Positions 7,036 to 61,410 of a DNA stretch of 64,000 bases are shown here, in pieces. The position numbers and the translations under genes are program-made. Numbering within the stretch: the first letter of the stretch is position 1; each line of letters opens with the position of its first letter. The stretch comes from a bacterium (GTDB lineage: Bacteria; Sysuimicrobiota; Sysuimicrobiia; Sysuimicrobiales; Segetimicrobiaceae): contig DATGJN010000085.1 of the NCBI GenBank assembly GCA_035295165.1, forward strand, positions 34,707-98,706, written 5' to 3'. The notes below the pieces were generated by a model, which worked only from the letters and a program-made list of their open reading frames with translations, had not been told where the DNA came from and did no database searches.

Positions 7036-8040
7036 ATGGAACAGCGCCTGCTCGGAAAGACAGGCCTCCGCGTCTCCGCCCTCGGCTTCGGTGCCGGCGC
7101 AGTCGGAGGCCTGTTGGTGCGCGGCGAACGCGCAGACCAGACGCGGGCCGTCGCGCGAGCGCTCGATGCGGGCATCACGTACTTCGATACGGCGCCGAGC
7201 TACGGCGACGGACGCTCGGAGGAGAATCTCGGCGCGATCCTCGGCGAACTACGCGCGTGGCGCCGCGTCGCGGTCGGCACAAAAGTCCGCCTGCAGCCGG
7301 CTGACCTCGCCGATCCGGCTGCGGCCATCAGGCGCTCGTGCGAGGCCAGTCTGCGCAGGCTGGGGTGCGATGCCGTCGACCTGCTGCAGCTTCACAATCC
7401 CATCGCCAGCAGCGCCGCCGACAACACGGTCACCGGCAGCAGCCGCCCGGTTCCGCTGGACGTGGTCACCGGTGCCGTTGCCGAGGGGATGCGCGACGTT
7501 GTGGCACAGGGGCTCGCCCGACACGCGGGTTGCACTGGCCTCGGCGACGCGCGCGCCCTGCACGCGCTCGTCGCGAGCGGCGCGTTCGCCACCGTTCAGA
7601 CCTACTTCAACGCGATCAACCCGAGCGCCGGCGTCGCGGGCGCCGCCGGCGGCGAGCAGGACTTCGCGGGACTGATCGGCGCCGCCGCGACCGCGGGCCT
7701 CGGGGTCGTTGCGATCCGCGTCATGGCCGCAGGCGCCCTGCTCGCGCGGCCGCAGCGACACCGAAACGCCGGGGATCCCGGCGCGCTGCTGGTCGACGGC
7801 GCGCGGTACAACCGCGACCTCGAACGTGCCCGCGAGATACAAGCGATCGCCGCTGAGCTCACCTACGACGGCCCGCTCGAACTCGCGCTGCGATTCGTCC
7901 TCGCCGCACCCGGGATCTCGACGGCGTTGGTGGGGTTCTCGAGCCCCGAACAGCTCGACGACGCGCTGCGCTGGACCCGCCGTGGTCCTCTTCCTCGGGC
8001 CGCGATCGACCGTGTTGTAGATCTGGCCCGCCGCCCGTGA
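7036..8040 (+). CDS. aldo/keto reductase
   Basis: The 334-aa ORF begins LGKTGLRVSALGFGAG and has the AKR signatures ITYFDTAPSYGDGRSEENLG. Confidence 0.9.
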   Translation: MEQRLLGKTGLRVSALGFGAGAVGGLLVRGERADQTRAVARALDAGITYFDTAPSYGDGRSEENLGAILGELRAWRRVAVGTKVRLQPADLADPAAAIRRSCEASLRRLGCDAVDLLQLHNPIASSAADNTVTGSSRPVPLDVVTGAVAEGMRDVVAQGLARHAGCTGLGDARALHALVASGAFATVQTYFNAINPSAGVAGAAGGEQDFAGLIGAAATAGLGVVAIRVMAAGALLARPQRHRNAGDPGALLVDGARYNRDLERAREIQAIAAELTYDGPLELALRFVLAAPGISTALVGFSSPEQLDDALRWTRRGPLPRAAIDRVVDLARRP

Positions 8041-8176
8041 AGGCCGGAGAGAACCCTCCCAGATCCGCGCGTTGGAATGCCGGGCCGCAGCGCGCTGCGG
8101 CCCGGCACCTTGTCCTGCGCAGGTGACGAACCGCGCCCGACCCGCGACCGCGGTGCCTGTGCGGTCACCGACGACG

Positions 8177-8627
8177 CCACTTGGACGTTGCCCGTGGTCG
8201 GCTTGGCGCGTTCCGTCTTCGGGTTCGTCACCTCGAGCACGCCGTCCTTGTGGACGGCCTTCGCCCCCTCGCCCTTGACCTCGCTCGGCAGCCTGCGCGT
8301 GAAGGTGCCGGCCCGAACCTCCCGGCGGTGATACGTATCCGTCGGTTCACATTCCGCCCAGCTCGCCGTGGATGGTGATGGTGCCGCTCGTCACTTGATG
8401 TTGAGGTTCTTCGGATCGATGTTCGGGAGTTCGGCTCTGACCACGACGTCGTTCTCCGTCTCGAACACGTCGACCACCGGCTCCCAGATCATCGCCGTCA
8501 TGCCCACGCGCTCCGCCCGAACGCGGCGCGTGGCGTAGAATTCATCGAGGAGCCGGTTCACGGACCACCGCAGCGGGGCCTTCACGGCCGTTGACGGGAT
8601 CCACGGATGCGGGGCTTCCGACCCCAT
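8177..8627 (-). pseudogene. Hsp20/alpha-crystallin small heat-shock protein gene disrupted by an in-frame TGA and a local double frameshift
   Basis: The N-terminal part (WEPVVDVFETENDVVVRAELPNIDPKNLNIK) stops at a TGA. The next block, VTSGTITIHGELGG, is encoded in the -1 frame. The C-terminal block YHRREVRAGTFTRRLPSEV...DGVLEVTNPKTERAKP is back in the original frame. It then continues as a long tail overlapping the AKR gene. Confidence 0.6.
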
Positions 8628-9254
8628 GCTTGGCCGGGCAACACCCGTTGCCCGATCCCTACTTCCCGTGCCCTCCGACGCCAATTCCCCTCCACCGTGG
8701 TGGGCGAGGCGCTCGCGATGATCGTCGGCACGATCGCCGGCGGAGCCGAGGTCAGTTCGCGGGACGAGTGCCAGGAGAGATTCCTCCTGGCTGCGCGGGA
8801 ATCGGAAATCGAGTGGGCGGACGCTCGGGATCGATCCGACCGCGTGCACTAAGAGCGCACCCGCACACCACTGGCTCGACGCGCCGCCGTGTCTGTCGCC
8901 CGCTGCAATCCAATCACCAGTGCCGCGCCGGGAGAAATGGCCGAAGAGCCTAGTCCTTTCGCATGAGTGGTCCGGTGACGACGCACCACCGGCTGGGAAC
9001 TAAATGCTGGGGAGCAGATTCGACGGTGACAGCCGGATGGTGATTGAGACCGATGCGAGGATCGCTCCGAAGCGGTGTTCGATGAGCAGCTCCCCATCTC
9101 TGCGTGGACGTCCGTTCCGCGCTCAACCTGCGGAGCGATCCCCCCCGCTCGAACCTCGCGGCGCCCGGCGCACGCCGGAGACGCCCCATCCCATCAGCTA
9201 GGCTAGGCGCGACAAATCGGCAGCAGGTTCCAGAACCAAAAGGAGGCGATGTAG

Positions 9255-10910
9255 GTGGGCGGCGGTAACAAGACGCGCTCCGTTCTGTATCTCGTCATCA
9301 CGGCACTGCTCGTCCTCGCGATCCCCGGGTGGTATGTGAATGCGACCGCTACGGTGGCTCACGCCCAGACCTCCGGCAACGGTGGCGGCGGCGGCGCGGG
9401 TGGTGGCGCCGGCAACGGCAACGGCTTGCCCGGTAACCCCGGGACCACCGTAGTGGGTGGCGGGACCGGCGGCTCCGGAGGGGCTGCGGGTACGACCGGC
9501 GGTAGCGGCGGGCACGGCGGCGCCGGAGGCGCGGGCGGCAGCAACAACACCAATACCTCCGGCAACGGCGGTAACGGCGGCGCGGGCGGCAGCGGCAGCA
9601 ACAGCAACAGCGACGGTGGCAACGGTGGTAGCGGCGGGGCCAGCTCAGGAGGCAGCGGCGGCACCGGTGGTGCCGGCGGAGCGAACAACGGGAACGGCGG
9701 CGCCGGCGCCGCCGGCGGCGCGGGCGGCAGTTTCAACACCAACAACTCAGGCAACGGCGGCGCGGGTGGCGCCGGCGGAGCCAGTCAGAATAGCACTGGC
9801 AATACCCCGGCCGGTGGCAATGGCAACGGGGGCGCCGGTGGCACCGGCGGCGCGAATTCCGGTGGCAGCGGCGGGACCGGTGGCGGGGGTGGCACCGGGA
9901 ACGGCAACGCCGGCGCGGGTGGCGCCGGCGGCAACGGCGGCAACGTCGGCGGCACTGCCACCGGCGGCAACAGCAATAACTCCGGAGACGGCGGTGCCGG
10001 CGGGGCCGGTGGGACCGGCGGCATCAACAACGGCGACGGTGGAAGCGGCGGGACTGGCGGAGCCGGCGTCGGCGGGAGCAGCGGCGGGACCGGCGGCACC
10101 GGTGGCGCCGGCAATGGGACCGGCGGCGCGGGCGGCACGGGCGGCGCGGGTGGTACGGCCAACAACACCGCCTCCGGCAACGGCGGTGCGGCTGGCGCCG
10201 GCGGAGCCGGCGGCAATACGAACGGCGGCGGCGGCGCGGGCGGTCTCGGCACGACAGTCGCCGGCGGTAACGGAGGAGCGGGTGGTAGCACGAACGGGAC
10301 CGGTGGGGCCGGCGGCGCCGGTGGTGCCGGCGGGAACGCGAACATCGGTCAGACGACCGGGCCAGGGGCGCTGGGCGGCTCTGGGAATGGCGGCGCCGGC
10401 GGCAAGGGCGGTGCCGGTGGAAGCAGCAATGGCATCGGTGGGACCGGTGGGGCTGGCGTAAACGGCGGGGCCGGCGGGAACAGCAACGGTGACGGTGGAA
10501 GCGGCAGCGCCGGCGGCAGCGGCGGCAACAGCAACGCCAACGGCTCCGGCAACGGTGGCGCCGGCGGCAATGCCGGTGGTGGTGGTAGCAACAACGGCAC
10601 AGGTGGTAACGGCGGGGCGAGCGCCGGCGCGGCCGGCGGCAGCAACAACGGCAACGGCGGCGGCGGCGGCGCGGGCGGTGGCGGCGGCAACAGCAACACC
10701 AACGGCTCCGGCAACGGTGGGGCCGGCGGCACGGGAGCGACGGGTGGCAACAGCAACGGCAATGCGTCCGGCTCAGCCGCTGGGACGAACGAGAACGGCA
10801 ACGGCGGCGCGGGCGGTGGCGGTGGTACCGGCGGGAACAATAACGGCGGCAACTCCGGCAACGGCGGCGCGGGCGGTAATGGCGCTCCAGGCGGGAACAA
10901 CAACAACTAA
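9255..10910 (+). CDS. secreted glycine/asparagine-rich (Gly-Gly-X)n repeat protein, PGRS-like
   Basis: GTG start with a perfect AGGAGG 8 nt upstream, and an N-terminal signal peptide (LVLAIPGWYVNATATVAHA-Q). About 500 aa follow of GGAGGxGG / GNGG / NSNGNG repeats with almost no hydrophobic or aromatic residues. A perfect hairpin terminator follows. Confidence 0.75.
   Translation: MGGGNKTRSVLYLVITALLVLAIPGWYVNATATVAHAQTSGNGGGGGAGGGAGNGNGLPGNPGTTVVGGGTGGSGGAAGTTGGSGGHGGAGGAGGSNNTNTSGNGGNGGAGGSGSNSNSDGGNGGSGGASSGGSGGTGGAGGANNGNGGAGAAGGAGGSFNTNNSGNGGAGGAGGASQNSTGNTPAGGNGNGGAGGTGGANSGGSGGTGGGGGTGNGNAGAGGAGGNGGNVGGTATGGNSNNSGDGGAGGAGGTGGINNGDGGSGGTGGAGVGGSSGGTGGTGGAGNGTGGAGGTGGAGGTANNTASGNGGAAGAGGAGGNTNGGGGAGGLGTTVAGGNGGAGGSTNGTGGAGGAGGAGGNANIGQTTGPGALGGSGNGGAGGKGGAGGSSNGIGGTGGAGVNGGAGGNSNGDGGSGSAGGSGGNSNANGSGNGGAGGNAGGGGSNNGTGGNGGASAGAAGGSNNGNGGGGGAGGGGGNSNTNGSGNGGAGGTGATGGNSNGNASGSAAGTNENGNGGAGGGGGTGGNNNGGNSGNGGAGGNGAPGGNNNN
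9370..10900. repeat. degenerate tandem GGC/GGN-rich coding repeats (low-complexity DNA)
   Basis: About 1.5 kb of imperfect ggcggcgccggcgg-type repeats produces long ORFs in most frames on both strands (Gly-rich, Ala-rich and antisense Pro-rich). Confidence 0.8.
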
Positions 10911-10931
10911 CGCCTGAGCACGTCGTAGATC

Positions 10932-10966
10932 GGGGCGGGGCATGCGACTCGTGCATGCCCCGCCCT
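10932..10966 (+). terminator. rho-independent terminator
   Basis: A perfect 13-bp GC stem (gggcggggcatgc / gcatgccccgccc) with a 7-nt loop, followed by tcgtcgttgttgtg, directly after the stop of the Gly-rich gene. Confidence 0.75.
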
Positions 10967-11115
10967 CGTCGTTGTTGTGAACATCCCTACGCGACGCGCG
11001 CCCCGCGCCGACGTCGCGTGGCCGCGCGGAACGTACCGTCTGTCGCCCGACGAACTGGGGCACACACTGCAAGGGCAGGCCGATACACGGTGAGAAACGA
11101 GGCGCGAACGGGCCG

Positions 11116-14100
11116 GTGAAGACTCCTTCGACCGACGACGAGCACAACCCGCGGACACCGCTCTCCATGCTCATCGTCGGAGACCGCCCAACCGACAGTG
11201 CCCTGGTGGTCGACAAACTTCGCCAGCACGGGTTCGACGTCGAGTGGCACCGCGTGGAGCACGAGTCGGACTACCTGGCACGCCTCAGCCCTGAACTGGA
11301 TGTCATCGTGGTCGACGACGGCCTGCTGCAGGTGGACGCCCGCCGCGCGATCGCGCTGGCGAAGGACCGCAACCTCGATGTGCCGATCGTCGTGGCCGTG
11401 GCGGCGCTCGGAGACGAAGCCGAGGCGTTGGTGAGCCGGTGGGGCGCCACCGATTGCGTGGTCAAGCCACACCTGCCGCTGCTTGCGCACGTGGTGGAAC
11501 GAGCGCGGACCCACCGACGCCTGCGACACGAACAGACGCAACTCCGCCGACGCTTGGACGCGTTCGTCGAAAATAGCTACGACGCCCTCGCGTTGATCGG
11601 TGACGATCTGAGAGTTCGGTACGCGAGCCCCTCGATTCGCCGCGTCATGGGCATCGAACTCAACGATTTCGTCGGACACGAAATTCTGGAGTTCGTGCAC
11701 GCCGATGACCACGAGCAGGTCCGCCGCGCCTACGACGCGCTCCGCCGCGATCCGACCCGCACGCAGGCGTCGCTCATCAGGCACCGACACGGAGATGGGT
11801 CCTGGCGCTTGGTGGAGATCACCCGCCGCAACCTCCTCGCCGAACCCAGCGTGCGCGCCATCGTGGTCAACTTCCGGGACGTGACGGAGCGCGAAACGGC
11901 GCAGAACGCGCTGCAACAAAGCGCATCGCGGTATCGAGGTTTGTTCGAGAGGGTGCCCATCGGACTGTACCTGACCCGCACCAACGGGACGTTCGTGGAC
12001 GCCAATCCAGCGTTCCTCGAGATGCTCGGGTATCCGGACCGCGCCACCCTTCGAGGAATCAACGCGACCTCGCTGTACGTCGACCCGGGCGCCCGCGAGC
12101 GGCTCACCGAGGCGCTCGAACGCGACGGTGTCGTGACGGGGTGGGAAAGCGCGCTCCGTCGGCGGGACGGCACGATCCTCTGGGGACGAGCGAACGTGCG
12201 CGCCGTTCACGACCCGACCGGCGAGGGGGACGGCCTCGAAGGCGCCATCATCGATATCACCGACCAACGCGCCGCCGAGACCGCCCTGCGGGACAACGAG
12301 CAGCGTTTCCGCGCATTGATCGAACACGGTTTTGATATCATCCTGCTCCTCGACCGACGCGGCATCATCCAGTACGCCAGCCCCTCCGCCGAGCGCGTCC
12401 TCGGCTACGAGCCCGACGCTCTCCTCGGCCGCGACCGCCTCGAGCTCGTCCACCCCGACGACCGCGCCGAACTGCGGCATCGGTTTGCGAGCCTGGTCGA
12501 GCACCCGGACGGGCAGGCGTTCACGCAAGCTCGGCTGCGGCACCGGGACGGCACGTGGCGCTGGACGGAGTCGGTGGCGACCAACCTGCTTCATGATTCC
12601 AGTGTGCAGGCCGTGGTGGCGAACTACCGCGACATCACCGTGCGAAAGTTGGCAGAGGAAGAGAACCAGCGACGTGCGGCACACCTCGAGACGATCAACG
12701 CGATCGTGGCGGCCGCCGTGTCGGCGCGCGACCTGGGGCAACTGCTGGAGCACACGGTCGACCTGACGCTCCACGCGCTGGGGCATACGATGGGGGGCAT
12801 CTGGATCGGGACGGAACATCGGGGCAGCGGCATGTCGGCGGACGTGGGCCCGTCGATCCTGCGGGCGGCGGCGTCGCTGGGGCAGGTCCTTGACGCCTCG
12901 GAGGCCGTCGCGGACGCGCGTGCGCCCGACGCGCACGGGTTGGCATCCGTAATGAAGGGCCTCGGCATTCTCGCCTGGATCGCCGCGCCTATCCGGGCCG
13001 GGGGACGCGCGATCGGGGGCATCGCCGTGGCGTCACCGGTGCCGTGCGCGTGGCGCCCGGACGAGACTGCGCTCGTGGAGACCGTGGGACGGCAGATCGG
13101 CGAGGCGGCCGAGCGGCTGGATCTGTTGCAACGCGCCGAACGGCGCACGGCGGAGTTGTTGGCGGTCACAGACCTCGGCCGCCGGCTCCGCGAGGCGGCA
13201 AGTGTGACCGACATGTACCCCATCATCGTCGAACACGCCATGCAGGTGCTCGCGAGTGAACACGGAGCCCTCGCGCTCTTGAACGAAGACGAAGAGTCCT
13301 TCACGCGGGTGTACGCGAGGGGGGTCTCAACGGAACCGCCCGGATCGACGTTCCCCGCGGCCGGCAGTCGATCGATGGAGGTTGTGCGAACGGGCATCCC
13401 GCGTGTGGCCAAAGATATCGGCGAGGAGCAGCGTCCGCCGTGGATGGATCACTTCAGCTACCGAGACTTCGGCCCGTACCTCGTGGTGGCGGTGCGATCC
13501 GAAGCGGAGAGCATCGGGACCCTCACGCTGCTCCGACGGAAGACCGGCCAGGATCGATCGTTCAGCGAGGACGACGTGCGCGTGCTGATGGGGATTGCCG
13601 AAATCGCCGGCTCGGCCATCCGGCGAGGACGCCTGCAACAAAGCCTGGAGCAATCGTACATCGAGATGGTGCTCGCGCTAGCCCGGGCCGTGGACGCCCG
13701 GGACAGCTACACCGGCGACCACAGCGAGCGCATCGCCGCACGAGCCGTCGCAACGGCGCGAGCGCTCGGATGCACCGACGATGAGACACAGACCATCCAT
13801 TGGGCCGCGTTGCTGCATGACATCGGCAAGCTCAGCGTGCCCGATCAGATCCTCAAGAAGCCCAGCCCGCTCACGGCGGCCGAGTGGGATGTCATGCGCG
13901 AGCATCCCACGATCGGCGAACAGATCTTGCGGCCGATCGAACGGATGCATGGGGTCGCCGCGATCATTCGCCACCACCACGAACGATGGGATGGTACGGG
14001 CTATCCCGACCGTCTGCAGGGCGACGAGATCCCGCTCGGGGCCCGTATTCTCGCGGTGGCCGACGCCTACAGCGCCATCATCGATACTCGAGCGTACGAC

Positions 14101-15288
14101 GCGGGCAGGCCCAAGAACGAGGCGATCGCGGAGATCCGCCAGTGCGCCAGCACGCAGTTCGATCCCGCCGTCGCCGACGTCTTCTGCCGTGTGATCGAGC
14201 ACGCCGACGCGGCGATCGTCCCGGTCGCGGAGATGGCCTCTGCGGGCAATGAGTCCATCCGATCACTGGCCTCGGCGGTGGTACAGCCGTTTCAGCAAAA
14301 CCGGCACCTCCGCCGCGCCGCCCCGGCGGTGGCGGACGTGGCACAACGACTCCTGCGGCCCCTCGATCTCACGGCCGTGCTCGAGGCGATCCTGAGCCAG
14401 ATCCAGAGTGTGTTCGGGTATCCGATCTGCGGCGTGCTTCTGCTGGATGAGCGGACCCGAGAGCTGCGCGTGGCCGCCCAGCGCGGGTTCGATCCCGATG
14501 TCGTGACCGGACTGCGGCTCCGGGTCGGCGAGCAAGGGATCGCCGGCTGGGTCGCGCAGCGGGGACGGTCCTACTACGCGCCTGACGTTACCCTGGATTC
14601 TCTGTACGTCGCGGGGTCATCGTCCGCGCGGTCGAACGTCGCGTTTCCGCTGATGGTCGACGACCGGACAATCGGTGTCCTGGACGTCGAGAGCCCGAGC
14701 GTCGACGCGTTCCCGAAGGAAACCCGCGAATTCCTCGCGACGTTCGCGGTCCTCGCCGCGCTTGCCATTCTCCGCGCCCAACGGGACGAGAATCTCAGCG
14801 AGCTCGCGCGCACCGACGGGTTGACCGGCCTCGCGAACCATCGGGCGATCCTGCAGGATCTCGAGCGCGAGATCGTACGCGCCCGCCGCAGCGGCCACCC
14901 CGTGTCGGTGGCGCTCGTAGAGATCGATGGGTTCAAGCGGCTCAACGACAAGTTCGGTCACCTGCAGGGCGATCTGGTGCTGCGGGAGGTGGCCGACGTG
15001 CTCCGCCGGCATTCTCGCGCCGGCGATCTCGTCGGGCGGTTCGGCGGCGACGAGTTCGTGCTGGTGCTGCCCCAGGCGACAAAGAACGTGGCCGCACAGA
15101 TCGTGGAGCGAGTGCGGGGGCACGTCGAGGAGATCCGCGTCCCGGGCAACGAGCGCACGTTGAGCGTCAGCATCGGACTGGCCGCCCATCCCGCCGACGG
15201 CGACGATCCGGACGGTCTTCTGGAATCGGCAGATCACGCCATGTATCAGGCGAAGCGCAACGGCGGCAACCGCGTGTGCGTAGCCTAA
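11116..15288 (+). CDS. multidomain c-di-GMP signalling protein: REC-like – 3x PAS – 2x GAF – HD-GYP – GAF – GGDEF
   Basis: A 1390-aa ORF. N-terminal receiver-like fold (LIVGD...DVIVVDDG...CVVKP). Three PAS blocks. GAF domains. An HD-GYP domain (HDIGK ... HHERWDGTGYP). A C-terminal GGDEF domain with intact RxxD I-site and GGDEF motif (RAGDLVGRFGGDEF). Confidence 0.9.
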   Translation: MKTPSTDDEHNPRTPLSMLIVGDRPTDSALVVDKLRQHGFDVEWHRVEHESDYLARLSPELDVIVVDDGLLQVDARRAIALAKDRNLDVPIVVAVAALGDEAEALVSRWGATDCVVKPHLPLLAHVVERARTHRRLRHEQTQLRRRLDAFVENSYDALALIGDDLRVRYASPSIRRVMGIELNDFVGHEILEFVHADDHEQVRRAYDALRRDPTRTQASLIRHRHGDGSWRLVEITRRNLLAEPSVRAIVVNFRDVTERETAQNALQQSASRYRGLFERVPIGLYLTRTNGTFVDANPAFLEMLGYPDRATLRGINATSLYVDPGARERLTEALERDGVVTGWESALRRRDGTILWGRANVRAVHDPTGEGDGLEGAIIDITDQRAAETALRDNEQRFRALIEHGFDIILLLDRRGIIQYASPSAERVLGYEPDALLGRDRLELVHPDDRAELRHRFASLVEHPDGQAFTQARLRHRDGTWRWTESVATNLLHDSSVQAVVANYRDITVRKLAEEENQRRAAHLETINAIVAAAVSARDLGQLLEHTVDLTLHALGHTMGGIWIGTEHRGSGMSADVGPSILRAAASLGQVLDASEAVADARAPDAHGLASVMKGLGILAWIAAPIRAGGRAIGGIAVASPVPCAWRPDETALVETVGRQIGEAAERLDLLQRAERRTAELLAVTDLGRRLREAASVTDMYPIIVEHAMQVLASEHGALALLNEDEESFTRVYARGVSTEPPGSTFPAAGSRSMEVVRTGIPRVAKDIGEEQRPPWMDHFSYRDFGPYLVVAVRSEAESIGTLTLLRRKTGQDRSFSEDDVRVLMGIAEIAGSAIRRGRLQQSLEQSYIEMVLALARAVDARDSYTGDHSERIAARAVATARALGCTDDETQTIHWAALLHDIGKLSVPDQILKKPSPLTAAEWDVMREHPTIGEQILRPIERMHGVAAIIRHHHERWDGTGYPDRLQGDEIPLGARILAVADAYSAIIDTRAYDAGRPKNEAIAEIRQCASTQFDPAVADVFCRVIEHADAAIVPVAEMASAGNESIRSLASAVVQPFQQNRHLRRAAPAVADVAQRLLRPLDLTAVLEAILSQIQSVFGYPICGVLLLDERTRELRVAAQRGFDPDVVTGLRLRVGEQGIAGWVAQRGRSYYAPDVTLDSLYVAGSSSARSNVAFPLMVDDRTIGVLDVESPSVDAFPKETREFLATFAVLAALAILRAQRDENLSELARTDGLTGLANHRAILQDLEREIVRARRSGHPVSVALVEIDGFKRLNDKFGHLQGDLVLREVADVLRRHSRAGDLVGRFGGDEFVLVLPQATKNVAAQIVERVRGHVEEIRVPGNERTLSVSIGLAAHPADGDDPDGLLESADHAMYQAKRNGGNRVCVA

Positions 15289-59879: not shown

Positions 59880-61410
59880 ATGGTCGCGCTGGCCACCGAT
59901 TTCTCAGACACGTCCCCCTCGGCCTCCTTCTCGTCCTTGTTGGCCGCGACGATCGCCGGCTGCTACCCTGCGGGCCCCGGCAGCATCCCAAGCCGCCGCA
60001 CGATCGCCCCGAACAGCTGCGGTGTCAGGTGCCCCTCCGCCAACAGCAACCAGTAGTATCGCGCGTGTTTCACGAGCCGGCCACCCGTCTTCATCAGACG
60101 CTGCTGCAGACTCGTCAGCGACCACGTATCAATCCGTTTCGGCAGCCCGAACCGCCGCCACAAGTTGCCCAAGTTGTACGCGATCACGCTCAGCCACAGC
60201 CGCACCTCGTTCGCCCGGAACCGGTGGCAGCTCAGCCGCGTCATCTTCACCGCCTGCTTGCCTTCCTTGATCCACTGCTCCGCAGTCCCGCGCTTATTGT
60301 AGAACCGCACCACCGCGCGGCTGTCCGCCTCCAGAGTCGTCACGATGAACCCTACTCGCGGGAACAGTTCCTCGCAGTGGAACTCGATCTTCGCCACCAC
60401 TCGCCGCGCGATCTTCCAACTCGCGGCCTGGTACCGGAAGCTCTTGTACCGGACCACCGGCTTGTGACTGGGGCGTCCGACCGGCCGCGTGAGCAACTCC
60501 GCGATGGCCCGCTCCAATGTGTCGTTCGAGGGGATGCGAATAGCGTACTTTGCGTTCCGAGTCTCCAGGGCTTCGTAGAGCTCCGGCTTGGCAAAACCGG
60601 CATCGGCCCGGACGACCACGTCCTTGCCCTCCCGCTGCTGCCGCTCGAGCTCGGGCAGCAACACCTGGTCCCACTCCTCGGCGCTATGAACGTTGCCCGG
60701 CCGCAACTTCGCCGCCAGACAGTCGCCCTCCCGATTGAACAGCAGCAGCGGATGATAGCAGGTCGACTCAAAGTGCCCGTTATAGGCGCTCTGCTCCTGT
60801 TGGCCGTAGACGGGGATCTCGGTACTATCGATATCGAGCACCACCCGCTGCGGGGTGTCCATAGGATCCACCTTCGCGATCAACTCCCGGTTGATCGCAG
60901 CCAGCCCAGCGAGGTTCTCATCTTGGGTCAGCAGCTCTGTCTCGAAGGAGTGCGCCCGGGACGTCAGAGCGGCCCCGCGCTCCCAGAGCTGCTCGGCCCC
61001 GATCAGCCGGAAAGTTGGATCCTGGGAGAGGCGTTCAGCATCGTTCACGTCCTCGTACCCCGCCAATCGGCGGTAGACCGATTGCCGGACCAAGTCGGCG
61101 AGCGGGAACTGCGTGTTCGTGCCCCTCGGATCGGTCAAATGCTGCGCGATGAGTTCACTGAAGCCCAACCGCTCGTCCAGTTCGCGCACGAGGATGAGCC
61201 CGCCGTCGGAGGTGACCCGCGAGCCTTGGAATTCGATGCGGAGTCTGGGGTTAAACGAGAGCTGAAAGGGCTGATTTTGTGCTTCACCCATAGGATGCAG
61301 ACCTCTGCGGCGTCGCCATCGCGCTCAAACCCGCACAGATCAAGACGTTCGACGCATCTCCACAGTTTCCGTTCCGTCGTCACATCGGAAATCCGGGATT
61401 AAAGGACTGC
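59880..61410 (-). mobile_element. IS1380-family insertion sequence (ends approximate)
   Basis: The transposase gene is flanked by about 100 nt of non-coding DNA, wedged between the ADH promoter and the Ldh_2 gene. Clear terminal inverted repeats could not be defined by eye (weak AATCCCGG / CCGGGATT match near 59870 and 61391). Confidence 0.5.
59963..61291 (-). CDS. IS1380-family transposase (DDE)
   Basis: 442 aa. Blocks are colinear with ISEcp1/IS1380 transposases (VTSDGGLILVRELD, LDIDSTEIPVYGQQE, RADAGFAKPELYE, FYNKRGTAEQWIKEGK). Confidence 0.85.
   Translation of the reverse strand: MGEAQNQPFQLSFNPRLRIEFQGSRVTSDGGLILVRELDERLGFSELIAQHLTDPRGTNTQFPLADLVRQSVYRRLAGYEDVNDAERLSQDPTFRLIGAEQLWERGAALTSRAHSFETELLTQDENLAGLAAINRELIAKVDPMDTPQRVVLDIDSTEIPVYGQQEQSAYNGHFESTCYHPLLLFNREGDCLAAKLRPGNVHSAEEWDQVLLPELERQQREGKDVVVRADAGFAKPELYEALETRNAKYAIRIPSNDTLERAIAELLTRPVGRPSHKPVVRYKSFRYQAASWKIARRVVAKIEFHCEELFPRVGFIVTTLEADSRAVVRFYNKRGTAEQWIKEGKQAVKMTRLSCHRFRANEVRLWLSVIAYNLGNLWRRFGLPKRIDTWSLTSLQQRLMKTGGRLVKHARYYWLLLAEGHLTPQLFGAIVRRLGMLPGPAG

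Follow-up and report, generated by a model that had tools for sequence, protein, structure and literature searches.

A probably Sec-exported glycine-rich protein from an uncultured soil bacterium is a candidate polyglycine-II helix bundle

What kind of protein is encoded by a gene that reads, beyond a short N-terminal part, almost entirely as Gly-Gly-X (GGX) triplets? The question is raised by a 551-amino-acid glycine-rich protein encoded at positions 9255..10910 (+ strand, stop codon included) of a 64,000-nucleotide stretch of bacterial DNA (contig DATGJN010000085.1, positions 34,707 to 98,706), referred to here as the window. A preliminary description of this DNA had likened the protein to the PE_PGRS proteins of mycobacteria and to snow-flea antifreeze proteins (AFPs), and its coordinates and account of the gene were correct. 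The gene is real and monocistronic, it belongs to an uncultured high-GC soil bacterium that is not a Mycobacterium, and its product is not a PE_PGRS member. From its sequence, the protein is probably a Sec-exported, Asn-turn form of the glycine-rich polyproline-II (PPII) bundle kind. We put the probability that the mature protein has a fold of this type, a bundle of PPII or polyglycine-II (PGII) helices, at roughly 0.55, and the probability that it is a real exported protein considerably higher.

The DNA itself has been assembled more than once. An independently assembled Joint Genome Institute (JGI) metagenome contig, Ga0209168_10000273 (3300027986), is identical base for base, and the 551-residue gene was called on it as well. 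The Logan assembly of SRR5579872 (L081) matches the window as far as position 9602, at which point, within the repeat, its contig stops. This short-read assembly thus breaks exactly within the GGC-rich stretch, and genes with GGC-rich repeats are likely truncated or lost in many metagenome assemblies. Scanning metagenomes returned one relative, a collinear open reading frame (ORF) of 541 amino acids on the 1.34-Mb contig Ga0209062_1000003 (L083), hereafter the ortholog. The two proteins are 76% identical over 538 aligned positions with 16 gap columns. From the Shine-Dalgarno (SD) sequence to the terminator the nucleotide identity is 73.5%, a DNA-level alignment over 1.7 kb that is far beyond chance.

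This pair of genes allows the coding frame to be identified. Nucleotide differences in the aligned codons number 82, 94 and 242 at the first, second and third positions, so that the third position takes 58% of them (242/418). We calculated dN/dS (nonsynonymous over synonymous substitution rates) by the Nei-Gojobori method for the pair in all six frames. The glycine frame gave 0.21, with a dS of ~0.86, while four of the five other frames gave 1.7-2.4 (1.7-2.1 for the +1 and +2 frames), which bears out the real gene in the glycine frame that had been proposed. The fifth, an antisense Pro-rich (PPAPP...) frame, has a dN/dS of 0.27 and is open for 513 amino acids with an ATG in the ortholog's contig (L083 6075-7616, -), and it is the argument for supposing that the glycine frame is not expressed and that the locus specifies an antisense Pro-rich product, a +1 Ala-rich product or simply a non-coding GC-rich repeat. 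Its low ratio arises because the Pro-rich frame shares its wobble position with the glycine frame. In the window the antisense frame is split into three ORFs (9359-10906, -), and no start, SD or signal is conserved for it, whereas SD, start codon, signal peptide and terminator are all kept for the glycine frame. We regard expression of a frame other than glycine as very improbable. The preliminary description had named this, for example expression of the Ala-rich +1 frame, as a way in which it could be wrong; the evidence points the other way because of the glycine-frame dN/dS and the conservation of the SD, the GTG, TVAHAQTSGNGG and the hairpin. The antisense Pro-rich ORF arises merely because GGN codons are so frequent, and it can mislead gene callers; a heuristic based on GC3-GC2 (GC content at third minus second codon positions) picks it.

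The signals around the gene are those of a self-standing transcription unit. The SD, AAGGAGG, was read from the sequence at 9241..9247 (+), 7 nt before the GTG at 9255, which is the first possible start because an in-frame TAG lies directly upstream. Both AAGGAGGCGATG and the GTG are kept in the ortholog. Behind the stop codon, a terminator scan found a GC-rich, intrinsic-terminator-like hairpin of 15 pairs with a loop of 5 (10932..10966, +), followed by CGTCGTTGTT, and RNAfold gave it an energy of -36.5 kcal/mol. The ortholog has a perfect hairpin in the same place after its stop codon, of different sequence and at -46 kcal/mol. The SD and terminator signals noticed earlier are thus present and conserved in both genomes.

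Export is predicted from the N-terminus. The sole hydrophobic stretch of the protein is residues 9-23, where the 15-residue Kyte-Doolittle mean is 2.76; in the mature part this mean never exceeds 0.44. The stretch follows K6/R8 and is itself followed by P24-G25 and then by A35-H36-A37|Q38, as is usual for substrates of Sec and signal peptidase I. Residues 1-37 (9255..9365, +) can be divided into an n-region with K6/R8, an h-region from V10 to V28 and a c-region with TVAHA, and the -3/-1 rule places cleavage before Q38. TVAHAQTSGNGG is identical in the ortholog, where the AHA|QT site is also kept, which upholds the Sec-type signal peptide reported before. The protein is probably exported by Sec and cut after AHA37. 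The 551 residues contain no cysteine or lipobox, twin-arginine (RR) motif or LPxTG, and no hydrophobic anchor at the C-terminus, which reads GGNNNN. Surface anchoring by sortase or as a lipoprotein was rejected, given zero LPxTG motifs and zero cysteines. Taking gene and signal peptide together, we are confident, at about the level of nine in ten, that this is a real exported protein.

Beyond the cleavage site, the mature region of 514 residues (9366..10907, +) was segmented into (GGX)2-5 segments and linkers rich in Asn, Ser, Thr and Gly, in agreement with the alternation of GGX triplets and Asn-rich spacers first described. Over all 551 residues the composition is 47.7% Gly, 14.7% Asn, 12.9% Ala, 8.2% Ser and 7.8% Thr, and the glycine-rich region begins at residue 41. 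The mature part contains no Cys, Trp or Tyr, and its other hydrophobic residues are one Phe, three Leu, three Ile and six Val; there are also five Pro, five acidic residues (four Asp and one Glu), one basic residue and one His. A strict parse yields 23 (GGX)n runs. They are 7-14 residues long, most often 8 or 11, which corresponds to (GGX)2-3 plus GG, with X being Ala 27 times, Thr 13, Ser 7, Gly 5 and Asn 5. With a relaxed parse, 32 PGII-compatible segments are found in the window protein and 31 in the ortholog, each of 6-15 residues, covering 62-65% of the chain. The linkers consist of N/S/T/G/D, are 3-9 residues long and often take forms such as NSNTNGSGN, SNNGN and INNGD; linkers rich in Asn, Gly, Ser and Asp suit tight turns, judging from turn propensities. 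Autocorrelation of the glycines peaks at lags 3 and 6, not 9.

Tandem Repeats Finder detected an internal tandem duplication at 10376..10761 (+), with a period of 162 nt (54 amino acids), ~2 copies, 80% identity and scores of 449 and 414, and this duplication in the C-terminal third is recent. Three larger 'super-repeats' of 155 residues were considered and dropped, since their 59-72% identity is too weak against a composition-only baseline of 52%. The long linkers repeat N-G-S/N-x-T sequons (residues 426-433 and 480-487; NANGSGNGG and NTNGSGNGG). N-x-S/T motifs number 14 in the window protein and 11 in the ortholog, which could be an effect of composition or could mark possible glycosylation sites.

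How the two orthologs differ depends strongly on the class of site. Glycines at the first and second GGX positions are 97.6% and 98.7% identical and linker glycines 96%, compared with 62% for non-glycine linker residues and 40% for the X positions, where swaps occur among A, T, S, N, G, K and H. The pair is separated by seven indel events of 1-7 residues each, all seven of them in linkers and none in a GGX run. As set out by Berisio and co-workers, a PGII sandwich needs the GGX glycines to be kept, above all the first, inward-pointing one, and its backbone-only hydrogen bonds leave X free (PMC10216338). Invariant inward glycines and tolerant X positions are what we find, on one ortholog pair, and runs of at least two consecutive GGX triplets joined by short turns, which define this fold class, are present in both proteins. 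In PPII sheets made by synthetic (Ala-Gly-Gly)n and (Pro-Gly-Gly)n, likewise, there are two layers and the glycines point inward (bioRxiv 10.1101/2023.11.25.568672). The site-class pattern therefore looks as would be predicted for a two-layer PGII sandwich, and not as for a drifting disordered region.

Disorder is nevertheless the explanation against which a folded bundle has to be weighed most carefully. The mature protein could be an intrinsically disordered, exported Gly/Asn-rich polymer, serving as a hydrated matrix, a hydrogel or an entropic brush, with selection acting on composition only. Its extreme low complexity and lack of a hydrophobic core would suit such a polymer, as would the failure of the Pfam, NCBIfam, PDB and phmmer searches to return a family or structure match and the pLDDT (predicted local distance difference test) of 28-36 in both AlphaFold runs. 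Selection on composition only does not fit well with the position-specific conservation given above (run glycines ~98%, X 40%, linker residues 62%), nor with just seven small indels, all in linkers, at a dS of ~0.86 in highly slippage-prone DNA. In a composition-only control, shuffled sequences in gapped global alignments reach ~52% identity, compared with the observed 77%. AlphaFold would be expected to fail without an alignment. We consider a disordered polymer possible, at something like one chance in four.

Several observations weigh against the bundle. AlphaFold2 gave a pLDDT of 27.7 for the whole protein as a single sequence, and of 36.1 for residues 246-401 with a pseudo-alignment consisting of the protein's own other thirds and one unrelated decoy row; values this low are equally expected from a disordered protein. 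Composition by itself accounts for the ~52% identity of the control. No disulfides, hydrophobic core or capping elements are present as an evident means of stabilising a sheet of this size. A single ortholog is known, so the conservation argument rests on one pair, and the neighbouring genes, being unrelated between the two genomes, provide no functional support. Because the AlphaFold runs, which had no real homologs to draw on, were uninformative, the fold is something we infer from sequence and evolution.

If the bundle is correct, each of the 31-32 GGX runs would coil into a left-handed polyglycine-II (PPII) helix 2-5 turns long, and the Asn/Gly/Ser/Asp-rich linkers would make tight turns between the helices. 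The helices would pack antiparallel into a flat two-layer sandwich, with the glycines facing inward and making backbone hydrogen bonds, and with the X residues (Ala, Thr, Ser and Asn) paving two broad faces. Without a PE/ESX-5 module and a membrane 'foot', the product would be a hydrophilic sheet, either soluble or loosely associated with the wall. Speculatively, a large flat patterned face of this kind might rest against some extended surface (cell envelope, matrix polymer, ice or a mineral) rather than serve in catalysis. Our confidence in any specific ligand is low, and binding of ice, mineral or matrix is speculation.

The same sequence logic could operate between chains. Polyglycine II crystals and spider flagelliform or GGX silk are models for an interchain lattice, and the GGX runs might assemble intermolecularly into polyglycine-II or 3(1)-helix lattices, giving an extracellular fibre, film or sheath. 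A neutral, hydrophilic protein with no capping or edge-protecting features would be suited to this, and polyglycine-II nanocrystals are reported in GGX-rich silk (PMC3808813). On the other hand, no run exceeds 15 residues (the range is 6-15), and conserved turn-forming linkers break up the chain at regular intervals; intramolecular, hairpin-like packing is therefore favoured. Nor are assembly, chaperone or usher genes kept beside the gene. Assembly between chains is in our estimation unlikely.

Does this protein belong to any family already described? Scans of the 551 residues against Pfam and NCBIfam (E<=10) and against PHROGs returned no hits, and neither did a PDB sequence search at E<=10. 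An indexed protein homology search gave nothing at E<=1e-3 and one unrelated beta-propeller at E<=10, its 8000-candidate word index being filled with generic GGAGG-type words. An exhaustive, composition-corrected phmmer search of 1.84 billion representative proteins also gave no hits. The composition correction of phmmer suppresses low-complexity matches, and the library appears not to contain the 551-residue protein itself; a local control with the same settings found the ortholog at E=1e-111, and for this reason we take the family to be absent from the 1.84-billion library. Despite the gene call on the JGI contig, the exact protein, with V or M as first residue, is not on record in a collection of 15 billion proteins. 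No match was obtained by tblastn against plasmids and phages, or by scanning viral contigs for the conserved N-terminal motif. As 83% of its residues are G, A, T or N, the protein is auto-detected by MAFFT as a nucleotide sequence if no ordinary protein accompanies it. Homology resources may have a systematic gap for secreted proteins of low complexity.

The PE_PGRS proteins are the obvious comparison. Tandem GGA/GGN (GGX) triplets, by which such proteins are recognised, are present here in 23 strict runs or 31-32 relaxed segments. The likeness extends to runs of 3-5 triplets, short turns, ~50% Gly and an extracellular location (PMC9436101, PMC10216338), and also to the conservation of Gly with X left free, as expected for PGRS (PMC10216338). 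The size is comparable too, with 27 helices in PGRS33 and 54 in Wag22 against ~32 segments here. This GGA/GGN composition (PMC10216338), together with a window GC content of 66.5%, which is similar to that of mycobacteria, might suggest that a mycobacterium is the source and the protein an ordinary PE_PGRS or PGRS-only one. The differences are decisive. There is no PE domain, which in PE_PGRS proteins takes up ~100 residues at the N-terminus, as the preliminary description had said: Pfam and NCBIfam are silent at E<=10 and residues 1-37 are the signal peptide. The GRPLI motif, which in PE_PGRS proteins links the PE and PGRS domains, and the ESX secretion motif Y...[DE] (YxxxD/E) have no match in either ortholog, and export is by Sec and not by ESX-5. 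The 551-residue protein has Asn-rich turns and near-neutral faces, whereas PGRS faces are negatively charged, and few indels separate its orthologs, unlike pe_pgrs33 with its many in-frame indels (PMC10216338). No sequence relationship to PGRS proteins was detected by phmmer among the 1.84 billion representatives. The hydrophobic 'foot' of PGRS domains is held to insert the sails into the mycomembrane (PMC9436101). No such 'sail foot' of Phe, Trp and Leu was found in the mature protein, and with one Phe, no Trp or Tyr and three Leu in 514 residues it consequently has no edge for mycomembrane insertion.

The organism is a further argument. A glutamine-synthetase-family protein of the window has relatives at 97-75% identity only in metagenomes, and its best named relatives, at ~60-62%, are from Longimicrobium, Gemmatimonadaceae and Chloroflexia/Chloroflexota metagenome-assembled genomes. 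Mycobacterium does not occur among its best 120 relatives, and the non-mycobacterial context claimed earlier holds on this basis. One argument first offered for that context, a neighbouring F420-type luciferase-like monooxygenase, does not: the gene lies 10 kb away, and luciferase-like monooxygenases are common in mycobacteria. An ordinary PE_PGRS protein is effectively refuted as an explanation, and we assign it almost no weight.

An older model of PGRS domains, a calcium-binding parallel beta-roll or beta-helix of Gly-rich nonapeptides like that of RTX proteins, has its place in the PGRS literature (PMC11939664) and might find encouragement in GGxGxN, which occurs 12 times in the window protein and 23 times in the ortholog. 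The proteins fail to supply what such a roll requires. GGxGxDxUx and GGxGxD both have zero matches, there are just four Asp and one Glu, almost no hydrophobic residues are available to fill a core, and the glycines recur with a period of 3, not 9. An RTX-like roll is thus most improbable, and the calcium binding suggested in the preliminary description is not supported in its RTX form.

Among proteins of known structure, a close analogy in appearance is with the AFPs of springtails (snow flea, Granisotoma), which are also secreted Gly-rich tripeptide repeats (PMC10235112; bioRxiv 10.1101/2022.09.07.506985). In these, short PPII helices and turns form a flat two-layer bundle with faces of Ala, Thr and Ser, and antifreeze activity scales with the flat area (same sources). 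The springtail proteins are small animal proteins (6-13 helices, 6.5-10 kDa), while the 551-residue protein has ~32 predicted helices and no homology to them. Springtail AFPs are stabilised by disulfides; the present protein, unlike them, has no Cys.

Gly-rich PPII-type motifs interleaved with variable loops, as here, also occur in the adhesin tip gp38 of T4-like/S16 phages, in the Obg N-domain, in acetophenone carboxylase and in ALK/LTK, and the variable loops between PPII helices in gp38-type bundles can mediate surface recognition (bioRxiv 10.1101/2023.11.25.568672). In gp38, Obg, acetophenone carboxylase and ALK/LTK the bundles are small domains within larger alpha/beta proteins, whereas the entire mature part of this protein is repeat. 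Derivation from a phage was rejected, since the surroundings of the gene are not those of a phage and neither PHROGs nor phage sequences gave a match.

Two other kinds of extracellular glycine-rich protein deserve mention. Plant class I glycine-rich cell-wall proteins and the GGX blocks of spider silk have an extracellular structural role and consist of (GGX)n, preceded by a signal peptide. The plant proteins are eukaryotic and often rich in Tyr or Phe, unlike the 551-residue protein, and are an analogy only; molecular dynamics did not support stable bundles for those examined (PMC13243192). Bacterial collagen-like proteins have long uninterrupted (G-X-Y)n tracts in which X and Y are non-Gly and often Pro, Thr or charged. 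A collagen-like protein was rejected: the runs here are at most 15 residues, their second position is Gly and the mature part has only five Pro.

Glycine-rich PPII-helix bundles are a small and recently recognised class. In the literature searched they are described for springtail AFPs, Obg, acetophenone carboxylase, phage gp38, ALK/LTK and, as predictions, PGRS domains; in this limited library we found no description of a Sec-exported, stand-alone Gly-rich PPII-bundle protein from other bacteria. If the predicted fold is true, PGRS-like sandwiches would not be a peculiarity of mycobacteria linked to ESX-5, since one could be exported by Sec in an unrelated soil lineage. The protein would then be a natural example of ~32 helices with no cysteine, almost no aromatic residues and hardly any charge, informative for sheet stability and for protein design, and could be put forward as a binder of surfaces, ice or minerals. 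A blind spot also comes to light, because very large protein collections either lack the protein or fail to show it. For this reason, and because an aligner reads it as DNA, the distribution of such proteins is probably underestimated. As a long shot, it might represent a family of stand-alone giant PGII sheets, Sec-exported by uncultured soil bacteria, with ~32 helices and neither disulfides nor a hydrophobic core, that offer large-area ice- or crystal-binding surfaces or self-assemble into a two-dimensional coat. Such a family would have arisen independently of PGRS and springtail AFPs and would perhaps be hidden from homology pipelines by composition filters.

A second conserved element lies upstream of the gene. 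A 27-nt block, AGAAATGGCCGAAGAGCCTAGTCCTTT, at 8933..8959 (+), ~300 nt before the start codon, is identical at 26 of 27 positions to L083 5605-5631, amid intergenic DNA and flanking genes that are unrelated. It occurs once in the window and, among 83 loci, only upstream of the Gly-rich gene. The block has no Rfam match, and Rfam on 8000-11200 gave chance-level matches only. It may belong to the gene as its promoter, operator or leader and travel with it.

The Gly-rich gene, the sole Gly-rich ORF of the window, does not stand out from its surroundings in GC3, at 0.80 compared with 0.68-0.89 in neighbouring genes. GGC and GGT make up 82% of its 263 glycine codons, compared with 53% in twenty other window genes. 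Compared with the same twenty genes, it favours codons that end in a pyrimidine, for Ser (AGC/TCC in place of TCG) and for Thr (ACC preferred to ACG) as well. The shift is consistent with high expression via one tRNA-Gly(GCC) or with an origin of the repeat by slippage, and this codon bias is the sole hint that the product might be abundant.

Upstream of the gene are an aldo/keto reductase and a nitroreductase, and downstream a 1390-residue PAS-GAF-HD-GYP-GAF-GGDEF signalling protein and a molybdenum hydroxylase. The ortholog has an S41 peptidase region on one side and a trehalose-phosphate synthase/phosphatase on the other. No flanking gene is common to the two loci, so the neighbours say nothing on function. 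Homology is limited to the gene unit and the 27-nt block, which makes the gene a self-contained monocistronic unit. The 1390-residue multidomain protein (11116-15288, +) starts ~200 nt after the Gly-rich gene and is not found beside the ortholog. With three PAS domains, three GAF domains, an HD domain of the HD-GYP type and a C-terminal GGDEF domain, it combines predicted synthesis and degradation of cyclic di-GMP, and its relatives in genome contigs are at most 51% identical among the matches listed.

No Pfam-supported gene was found in the 1.2-kb stretch 8040-9255, where remnants of an Hsp20/alpha-crystallin gene are visible on the minus strand at ~8200-8500. They comprise WEPVVDVFETENDVVVRAELPNIDPKNLNIK, an in-frame stop, VTSGTITIHGE in another frame and, after a return to the first frame, YHRREVRAGTFTRRLPSEV...DGVLEVTNPK. 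The arrangement suggests a frameshifted pseudogene, and the JGI contig has the identical sequence. Farther away, the window carries an intact IS1380-family DDE transposase (59963-61291, -; Pfam DDE_Tnp_1_4, E=1e-119), which is ~50% identical to ISKpn23/IS1247-type transposases on proteobacterial plasmids.

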